Virus record (IMG/VR): IMGVR_UViG_2737471853_000007 | Coordinates: 1 to 17,015 of that record | Strand: one strand, 5' to 3' | DNA length: 17,015 nucleotides | Origin: a virus | Lineage: Duplodnaviria; Heunggongvirae; Uroviricota; Caudoviricetes | Shown here: in pieces, positions 7,817-9,643 of the stretch | How the letters are laid out: each line of letters starts with the position of its first letter | How positions within the stretch are numbered: position 1 is the first letter of the stretch | Translations under genes and position numbers: made by a program | Notes under the pieces: generated by a model | The model's input: the letters and a program-made list of their open reading frames with translations, nothing else | Told to the model about the DNA's origin: nothing | Database searches by the model: none

Positions 7817-9643
7817 TTACTCACCAATAACGATATTAACGAATGCTTCAGAATGAGCAAGTGCAATATCTGAGTAATCCCATACGCGGTAAACGATAGT
7901 GTTACTTGAGCGATAAGTGGTATCGTCAAAATCCACTTCCTGTCCTTCCCAATTTGCGATAATTACATTACTGAAATCACCAATTAGGATCTCACCATCT
8001 GCAACGAATTCAGAAACAACTACCTGTACTTCATCTGCTAACCACATAGCTTCACTACGATAGCCTTCAACCATCGCTTTAGCGGCGGTGTTATCAAGTA
8101 CGGCAATCTGACGTAAAGTAGAAAGAGTCTTTGCATTCATCACGGCTTTCGCAGCTCGAACATTCACGTTAGCTTGTGCCAGTTGAGCAACAGCGTTTTG
8201 GACATCTTCAAGAGTGATAGAACCCGCAGTAGCAACGTTCAGTACTGGAGCAGCCGCAACGATTTTATCCATTACGTTTTGTTCCAAGCCCTGAGCCGCG
8301 TAACGCATTAATTCTGACTGTACGAATGTTTCAATATTTGGAGCAGTAAGAATTGCAGTTTTACTTAGTGGAATAGCACCACCGAATGCTTTTGGTGTTA
8401 GGGTAACTTTAGTGAAGTTAGCAATAGAATCATCTTGTGCTTCTGCTTCGCCATAGAATTTAAATACCGGAGTTACACCATTAGCTTTAGGAATAGAAAG
8501 ATTACCACGACCAGCCAAGCCTGAATAAACAGTAGTATTTAGTTCACCAAGAGCAGATAGCTTTAATAGCTCTGGAATATATTGGTCTTGTAGATCATCT
8601 GCGACTACACCAGCAGCCGTAGTAGTATTAGTTGAAGGTACTACAGCACGTACATAACCATTCTTACCGAATTCATAACCTTCAAGAGAGGTTTTATCAC
8701 CGGCTTTGATAGCACGTAGCATATCCTTTAATAGATTTTTATCCATCGATTTGATTTCCTTATCATGATTAGGATTGTTTTTAATGTCATTCAATTGACG
8801 TTTGAAATCGGTCACGGTAATTCCTTTACCAATGGCATCCGATACATCAATATTAAGTACTTTACCGAGTGCTTCTAGTTCGCGTACACGTTCAGTATCA
8901 TCAGTACTATTTATAATTTCCGGTTCTTCACCTTGTACTTTGTTGAGTAAGTCAGGACGTTTAGAAAGAATATCTAAAAGTTCTTCATCACTTAGATCGC
9001 GTTTAACTTCATCTACGTGTTCTACTACTTCTTCAACTTCGTCTTTAACTTCCTGTTCGGTAGCGTCTACTGTCGTTTCAATTTCGCTATCGTTATTTGT
9101 TTCTTCCATGAATTGATCCTTTTGAATTGTTTCACCTGCTTTATTTAGTGAATCAATTTCAATATCGGATTCCATTGAACGGCCTACGCCTACAGAAGCA
9201 TCTGCTGGTATTGTAACTAAGCTAATTTCATAGATTTCATAATCGGAAACGTAGATATTATTTCCAGAAATGTAGTAATCATTAATGTTATAGCCAATAC
9301 TGATATGTGTTAGTACGCCTTCCTGAATCATTTCCCATTCATCATTAGCGGTAGTACTAATACGTAGCGTTGCACGTCCTACACGGTCGGCGTCCATATG
9401 TGCAGATACAACAGCACCAATGAGATCATCACGATTATGATTAAAGAGTACTGCACCATTTTGATTAAGACGGCGTAGGTCTGCGTTATCAGAACCGCAT
9501 AGAAGGATTTCATTATAGATTTCACCATTGATTTCACGCTCTACTGGTGTTTCTGAGCAAAACGCTACATCGATAGTTCGCGATTCTGTATTAATCGCCT
9601 GTAGGGGTATCGTTAGTTCCCTCTTCTGGTTTTTGATTTCCAT
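7817..9643 (-). CDS. Fused prohead protease - scaffold-like linker - HK97-fold major capsid protein
   Basis: 608-aa ORF. The N-terminal about 170 aa resemble HK97-type prohead protease ([33 protein letters not shown]). The middle is an acidic, helical scaffold-like region ([29 protein letters not shown]). The C-terminal about 280 aa resemble HK97-family major capsid protein, with a close match to the HK97 gp5 C-terminal block (ours [13 protein letters not shown] vs HK97 ERLALAHYRP, recalled from memory). SD AAGGAAG sits upstream of the ATG at 9643. Confidence 0.8.

Follow-up and report, generated by a model that had tools for sequence, protein, structure and literature searches.

How does a phage whose prohead protease, scaffold-like linker and major capsid protein are encoded by one uninterrupted gene supply its procapsid with the protease? 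The question is raised by a 608-codon open reading frame (ORF) in a stretch of Caudoviricetes DNA of 17,015 nucleotides (IMG/VR record IMGVR_UViG_2737471853_000007, positions 1 to 17,015; hereafter the window). A sequence-only reading of the window had proposed that each capsid subunit would bring a protease and a scaffold of its own. We find that the ORF is genuine and serves head assembly in a lambda-like siphophage prophage, that it is anciently conserved, and that its protease-scaffold-capsid single-gene architecture is already known and widespread. The explanation that we favour, with a probability of about 65%, is that this genuine fusion gene gives rise to a nested series of products, with candidate internal starts at Met179 (M179) and Met300 (M300) in addition to the annotated start M1.

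Domains of the fusion protein and spread of the fused gene

The gene lies on the minus strand (9643..7817; ATG 9643-9641, TAA 7819-7817), as does the late operon that contains it. Its 608 codons run without interruption, exactly as the sequence-only reading had described them, with the strand left unstated. Coordinates of all features are collected in Table 1. The N-terminus carries an S78 prohead serine protease domain. Pfam Peptidase_S78 (PF04586) matches residues 61-150 with 35.4 bits, against a gathering cut-off of 21, and alignment to HK97 gp4 with hhalign places H69 on H65 and S115 on S114. Both residues are invariant in a 55-sequence family alignment, and the conservation profile identifies the protease domain as the best conserved stretch of the whole protein. 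The NCBIfam/TIGRFAM equivalog TIGR01543 scores 45.1 bits, below its cut-off of 59, and the domain, though related to the stand-alone HK97 protease, does not count as its equivalog. A sequence profile search of the PDB found no solved prohead protease relative at E<=0.01. No other protease gene was seen in the head module by Pfam and PHROG profile searches.

The C-terminal part of the chain matches Pfam Phage_capsid (PF05065) at residues 346-604 (65.2 bits, gathering cut-off 24.2), and the profile of the capsid chain of roseophage vB_DshS-R4C (8gta_A) matches residues ~345-606 with an E value of 1.4e-23. In the whole-chain AlphaFold2 (AF2) model the mean predicted local distance difference test score (pLDDT) is 65, with both domains mostly between 65 and 90. 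The top Foldseek matches of this model are R4C 8gta_A and HK97 2ft1/1ohg, at a probability of 1.0 and target template modelling (TM) scores of 0.65-0.71. The protease and HK97-fold capsid assignments of the sequence-only reading are thus both borne out. Maturation cleavage is predicted near residues 330-340, around R332/A333, because of the alignment to Ser104 of HK97 and the first residue of the R4C chain. The R332/A333 bond lies 12 residues before an 'AAG' that aligns with 'AGS' of HK97, in which the mature end, Ser104, is 8 residues before the motif; the deposited R4C chain starts at the equivalent of residue ~343. The predicted mature protein would comprise ~276 residues.

The region between the two domains had been described as an acidic helical linker. 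Its acidity is confirmed at residues 157-218, which have a pI of 4.05, but its helicity holds only in part, as this most acidic stretch is predicted to be disordered. AF2 models residues 156-218 with low confidence and without secondary structure, and confines the helices to residues 219-314, where there are several short helices and a conserved core at 250-285. Confidence is low again at residues 315-345. Alignments reach into this middle part from phrog_80 (protease(-scaffold)), to residue 312, and from NF045541, to residue 283. From its position and by analogy with the HK97 delta domain, the region 219-332 may act as a scaffold.

Relatives were collected by scanning one genome per species, which yielded 80 loci; together with the window, R4C and VP882 the sample comprises 82. 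An unbroken ORF spans both domains in 82/82 loci, and the 80 scanned loci come from Gamma-, Beta- and Alphaproteobacteria, Verrucomicrobiota, Gemmatimonas, Synergistaceae, Dehalococcoidales and others. A large protein database holds 608 homologues; among the 120 listed, almost all have both Pfam domains and a length of 590-650 aa, and one shares 98% identity with the query. Near-identical public proteins are named "phage major capsid protein". A chromosomal prophage of Scandinavium lactucae is 95% identical to the window at the DNA level over 13.9 kb and has the same reading frame. An end-to-end match to PHROG 617 ('major head protein'; residues 2-603 against profile positions 5-620 of 626, E 1.1e-80) places the protein in this class as well as in Pfam S78 and Phage_capsid; the name of PHROG 4523 is "major head and protease protein". 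Membership in NF045541 (NCBIfam 'prohead protease/major capsid protein fusion protein', scaf_prot_MCP2) was considered and rejected: the score of 117 bits falls short of the cut-off, 525, only residues 17-283 align, on positions 1-247 of 634, and the capsid half does not align.

Fused architectures had been said to occur in some phages, and they are indeed represented in these libraries and in the literature. A "protease-scaffold-capsid fusion" has been published for cluster EE of the Microbacterium phages and for several further actinophage clusters (PMC7302621), and fusions are also described in Rhodobacter cluster RcC (PMC8601537) and in Paracoccus prophages (PMC6536676). PMC11283397 cites Liu & Mushegian 2004 for such fusions. 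Separately, in one relative (L089, Logan contig SRR31240105_17298) the fusion gene occupies two overlapping frames near the region equivalent to M300; this split probably reflects either an indel, in a contig of low coverage, or a pseudogene.

Candidate internal starts at M179 and M300

An in-frame candidate start codon with its own Shine-Dalgarno (SD) sequence downstream of the protease domain is present at both M179 and M300. The SD-antiSD duplexes computed for these two sites are comparable to that of M1 (Table 1), and the other internal methionines tested range from +0.2 to -4.2 kcal/mol. When related ORFs were scanned for an SD followed by a start codon, two peaks appeared, one at the annotated start and the other right after the protease domain, at the equivalent of M179 (aaAAGGAtcaattcATG). 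An in-frame SD and ATG follow the protease domain in 65/81 distinct loci, at a median of 23 residues past the domain, and the products that would start there have a median length of 436 aa. In the linker, 46% of in-frame ATGs are preceded by an SD, against 5-8% within the protease and capsid domains; as controls, the linker values are 12.7% for any codon and 6% for ATGs in the +1 frame. The enrichment corresponds to a binomial P of ~1e-22 and a Fisher P of ~2e-29, both of which count each in-frame ATG as independent although the sequences are related. Within the enterobacterial clade the residues before the linker methionine differ (QKDQF, QEREL, TEERL and others) and the purine-rich SD persists. 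Among the loci that fail the SD criterion (n=16) the methionine is still there in most, followed by a typical N-terminal sequence, and one has a GTG with AAGGAG.

More distant fusion genes and unfused relatives point to the same position. The protease-capsid fusion of phage ep3 has an SD at 1/15 internal ATGs, the one directly past the protease domain, and an SD and ATG follow the protease domain in R4C and VP882 as well. In the Faecalibacterium phage FP_Epona, which is unfused, a 176-aa protease is followed after 13 nt containing AGGAGG by a 530-aa scaffold-capsid gene annotated as major capsid protein (MCP). In an unfused metagenomic locus the portal is followed by an S78 protease of 212 aa and, after a gap of 17 nt, by an MCP of 424 aa, which aligns end to end with residues 179-608 of the query. 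Two other positions were tried and discarded. M157, in the sequence GRSM, has no SD-like sequence before it and is replaced by leucine in half of the family. The methionines of 'M(V/I)PxDV' in distant relatives (profile positions 323-330) have only a 4-nt AAGG at a 4-nt spacing, which is attributed to chance; (V)PxDV at these positions is a conserved peptide motif.

M300 was first noticed as a strikingly conserved methionine in a variable stretch, with the same AAGGA motif before it as M1. The methionine is found in 116/116 enterobacterial family members, and AAGGA stands 7-10 nt before it in 10/10 DNA sequences, down to 38-45% protein identity. In these ten genes AAG accounts for just 17-43% of lysine codons, and in 2/10 the AAGGA of M300 is the sole one of the entire ORF. 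Phage DCP80, at 29% protein identity, has both internal sites with motif and spacing as in the window. The M300 site is specific to the enterobacterial clade; R4C, RcRhea/RcCronus and VP882 are without it. A 309-aa stand-alone capsid homologue (P0135) was not used, as its sole contig is 1.5 kb long and its upstream frame continues the scaffold region, so that it looks like a frameshifted fused gene.

The M1 start has its own peculiarity. The 3' end of the portal gene and the beginning of the fusion ORF share 53 nt (9591-9643), and the SD of M1 lies inside portal coding sequence. The overlap recurs in relatives, with 44 nt in VP882, 23 nt in ep3 and 4 nt in R4C. It could couple initiation at M1 to translation of the portal, or hold such initiation at a low level.

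A proposed nested set of products and its alternatives

The conserved SD and ATG at M179, and their agreement with the gene start of unfused relatives, argue for nested products, with the protease on only some of the subunits. Initiation at M1 would give a 67-kDa protease-carrying subunit and initiation at M179 a scaffold-capsid protein of 47 kDa, the equivalent of HK97 gp5. A third form of 33 kDa, the capsid protein behind a short leader, may come from M300 in the enterobacterial clade. Because the capsid domain is common to all forms, they would co-assemble around the portal into a procapsid, which the protease would enter as a covalent passenger on a fraction of the subunits. Once concentrated inside, the protease would cut everything N-terminal of residues ~330-340 off all forms, leaving a ~29-kDa mature capsid protein in a shell that is probably without decoration protein, like that of R4C. 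Profile searches reveal no gene for a separate scaffold or decoration protein in the operon, in line with the sequence-only reading. The relative initiation rates would then set the dose of protease and scaffold per procapsid. For the family at large we lean the same way, a little less firmly: its 'fusion' genes would encode a minor protease-scaffold-capsid chain, a major scaffold-capsid chain from M179 and, in enterobacterial prophages, a third, near-mature capsid chain from M300.

The closest solved relative is R4C, whose gene 006 (L081, MK882925.1 5455-7344) encodes 629 aa with an N-terminal S78 protease domain; chain A of 8GTA comprises 268 C-terminal residues. R4C gp006, the protein of the Rhodobacter phages RcRhea/RcCronus (Cronusvirus) and gp07 of Vibrio phage VP882 all belong to PHROG 617 and share with the query a length of ~600-640 aa and the order S78 protease, linker, HK97 capsid. 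R4C and VP882 also share the gene order of the window, with the large terminase, a head-tail joining or adaptor gene, the portal and the fusion gene. These phages differ from the query in their hosts, which are Alphaproteobacteria or Vibrio and not Enterobacteriaceae, and their proteins are 27-30% identical to it. The R4C capsid is described as a T=7 shell of 415 copies of the capsid protein, with no other shell component described (PMC10276861). The same paper is silent on the N-terminal ~360 residues, and the terms 'cleav', 'SDS-PAGE' and 'mass spectrometry' are absent from its text; it seems that the protease fusion has attracted no comment in this phage, whose structure has been characterised. 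The head proteins of the NF045541, ep3, ECOO78 and Arya type are homologous to the query in the protease and the first part of the linker.

Compared with HK97, the query gene amounts to gp4 and gp5 minus a stop codon. The protease family, the catalytic residues and the capsid fold are the same, in both systems the N-terminal region of the capsid protein is thought to be a scaffold removed by the protease, and the 430-aa M179 product approximates gp5 (385 aa). In HK97, genes 4 and 5 are separate, 2 nt apart, and the protease enters the prohead non-covalently, whereas in the query no stop codon intervenes and the protease is tethered to a capsid subunit. The scaffold-like region of the query is also longer than the delta domain (154 vs 102 residues) and has no detectable sequence similarity to it. 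The actinophage fusions (Microbacterium EE; Arthrobacter AN, AX and FE; Gordonia CW and DM; Rhodococcus RRH1) likewise unite shell-assembly functions in one gene, and the ClpP-gpT fusions of Paracoccus prophages follow the same one-gene idea (PMC7302621, PMC6536676, PMC8601537). Both groups belong to other sequence families, some with a ClpP/S14 protease or a Mu gpT-like capsid protein, and the actinophage fusions are tied to very small genomes.

Nesting itself has precedents. In lambda C/Nu3, herpes simplex virus 1 UL26/UL26.5 and gp17/17.5 of the archaeal Haloferax virus HFTV1, a long product carries the protease, a shorter product of an in-frame internal start provides the bulk structural or scaffold protein, and initiation sets their ratio (bioRxiv 10.64898/2026.09.13.751334; PMC11565193); for HFTV1 the nesting was shown by ribosome profiling (bioRxiv 10.64898/2026.09.13.751334). 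In these three viruses, where nesting is demonstrated, the capsid protein has a separate gene. In the query, for which we infer nesting, the nested frame runs through the capsid protein, and the short product would be a capsid subunit rather than a free scaffold. A limited library searched for literature on internal starts in protease-capsid fusions returned nothing relevant, and the evidence for nested starts presented here is new as far as that search reaches.

Three other explanations have to be set against the nested one. A sequencing or assembly indel that joined separate protease and capsid genes would fit the existence of unfused relatives, in which a stop codon separates the two genes, as well as the frame break in the low-coverage contig L089. 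The conservation of the unbroken ORF effectively refutes such an artefact: the 82 loci are independent and include the complete phage genomes of R4C, VP882, RcRhea and DCP80, there are 608 database homologues, and the S. lactucae prophage keeps the frame. Far more substantial is the view that the 608-aa chain is the sole product, so that each of ~415 subunits brings protease and scaffold and processes itself. In its favour, the literature annotates such genes as coding for single fusion proteins (PMC7302621, PMC8601537), the SD of M1 is usable, no part of the chain is better conserved than the protease domain, and a frame that stays open in all 82 loci across a hypervariable linker suggests that covalent linkage is selected. 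This view nevertheless leaves unexplained an SD and ATG that recur past the protease domain across phyla and in the specific frame, and their coincidence with the point where the scaffold-capsid gene of unfused relatives begins. A T=7 procapsid would moreover have to hold 415 x 37.4 kDa, or ~15.5 MDa, of protein inside, which is possible but crowded. From the known composition of HK97, this can be estimated as roughly twice or more the internal protein load of Prohead I. We consider a sole product rather unlikely. The claim of the sequence-only reading that each subunit delivers its own protease and scaffold is not supported and is probably too simple: the SDs of M179 and M300 are as strong as that of M1, and M179 is conserved and matches the start of the unfused gene.

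It is also conceivable that the N-terminal domain is a degenerate, inactive relic that serves only as extra scaffold, processing being left to another protease. The TIGR01543 score below cut-off could be taken in this sense, and so could the weak structural match to a solved prohead protease: the three best PDB matches of an AF2 model of residues 1-156 (mean pLDDT 70) are all the T4 gp21 protease 5JBL. A relic would hardly be expected to be the most conserved part of the protein, with catalytic His and Ser invariant and aligned with those of HK97 gp4, and no other protease gene is in sight in the head module; we regard this explanation as very improbable.

Several points weigh against the nested reading, which draws its case for internal starts from sequence conservation. 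SD-like motifs within genes have other proposed roles. No clear SD is present at the linker methionine in 16/81 distinct loci, and in a Serratia locus (L009) there is no ATG, GTG or TTG anywhere in the linker. The loci were found with protease-domain patterns and ranked by likeness to the fused query, a sample that favours fused genes. The matches to 5JBL are specific but weak (probability 0.99-1.0, E 0.015-0.025, TM 0.49-0.57), searches with residues 179-340 for a scaffold family gave only noise (Pfam at E<=10, PHROGs at E<=0.1), and the predicted cleavage position derives from the HK97 Ser104 alignment and the start of the R4C chain.

The fusion alone adds little, since it is in profile libraries, has been described in several phage groups and has a relative with a solved capsid. 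If the nested reading is correct, the annotation "major capsid protein" or "capsid and protease fusion" stands, in many genes, for two or three proteins, which would explain how such phages avoid packing a protease in every subunit. Lambda, herpesviruses and an archaeal virus would then share their nested protease strategy with phages in which the capsid gene is fused in. This would bear on annotation, on virion proteomics and on the interpretation of procapsids in cryo-electron microscopy, as well as on work on defence systems that sense capsid, scaffold or protease proteins.

Surrounding genes and other observations

The terminase and portal genes of the prophage are lambda-type (GpA, Phage_portal_2). 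The portal gene and the fusion ORF are adjacent, with no gene between them. Upstream of the portal, the 176-aa ORF is placed in the head-tail-joining position by a PHROG 5774 'head-tail joining' match and by the position that it shares with R4C; BLASTP against the R4C adaptor gp004 found no significant similarity. Beyond the two chaperone-like ORFs, the operon continues with the tape measure gene.

Table 1. Features of the fusion gene and its neighbourhood, in positions of the window
Feature	Position	Strand	Remarks
Complete ORF, 608 codons + TAA	7817..9643	-	prohead protease - linker/scaffold - major capsid protein, 66.8 kDa
S78 (HK97 gp4-type) prohead serine protease domain, residues 1-156	9176..9643	-	Pfam, hhalign, conservation, AF2 model
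His69 codon	9437..9439	-	aligns with catalytic His65 of HK97 gp4
Ser115 codon	9299..9301	-	aligns with catalytic Ser114 of HK97 gp4
Linker, residues 157-218	8990..9175	-	hypervariable, 35% D+E, predicted disordered
Helical scaffold-like region, residues 219-332	8648..8989	-	AF2 helices, conservation; ends at conserved R332/A333
HK97-fold major capsid domain, residues 333-608	7820..8647	-	29.4 kDa, predicted mature capsid protein
SD AAGGA (extended AAGGAAGT) of M1	9655..9659	-	inside portal 3' end; duplex -5.5 kcal/mol
Internal SD AAGGA	9117..9121	-	7 nt upstream of M179 codon; duplex -5.4 kcal/mol
In-frame ATG, M179	9107..9109	-	candidate internal start; product 430 aa, 46.9 kDa (scaffold/delta + capsid)
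Second internal SD AAGGA	8757..8761	-	10 nt upstream of M300 codon; duplex -6.2 kcal/mol
In-frame ATG, M300	8744..8746	-	candidate clade-specific start; 309-aa, 33.2-kDa capsid protein with 33-residue basic leader
Small terminase	13985..13437	-	
Large terminase, lambda GpA-type	13531..11642	-	
176-aa ORF, head-tail-joining position	11629..11099	-	PHROG 5774 match; position shared with R4C
Portal, lambda family (Phage_portal_2)	11099..9591	-	
FII-like head-tail protein, 107 aa	7488-7811	-	downstream of fusion ORF
156-aa ORF, TTG start as listed	7094-7564	-	without family match
946-aa tail protein	4236-7076	-	
154-aa tail tube protein	3715-4179	-	
Two chaperone-like ORFs, 103 aa + 121 aa	2965-3674	-	between tube and tape measure genes

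Downstream of the fusion gene, the 156-aa ORF shares 77 nt with the FII-like 107-aa ORF, and its real start is probably further downstream than listed. The ORFs of 103 and 121 aa occupy the position of the tail assembly chaperones G/GT, and a programmed -1 frameshift could occur there, as in lambda and HK97. The N-terminus of the 946-aa ORF is a paralogue of the 154-aa tube protein (29% identity over 136 residues, E 1e-18), both matching phrog_158. The tube-like part is followed by tail-fibre repeats and, at the end, by a Peptidase_S74 intramolecular chaperone domain (841-897). A tail-tube domain joined to a long fibre, upstream of an ordinary tube gene, is unusual; such a tube-fibre fusion might serve to put fibres along the tail as decoration.

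Among full-length phage homologues of the fusion protein, the closest is that of Escherichia phage DCP80 (L086, PQ671644.1 5789-7789), with 29% identity. The record is 141 kb long and classed in Straboviridae/Tevenvirinae; the homologue lies beside a terminase large subunit, among ORFs that are all hypothetical. A lambda-like head module in this T4-like record may reflect a chimeric assembly or a misclassification.

Finally, positions 12475-16993 of the window, beyond the terminase genes, are 88-97% identical to E. coli chromosomes and contain a DUF3800 gene (14767-15921, plus strand) and small ORFs, whereas the head and tail genes of the window have no close DNA match in E. coli. This difference suggests that 12475-16993 is a mobile cargo or moron segment common to otherwise different prophages.

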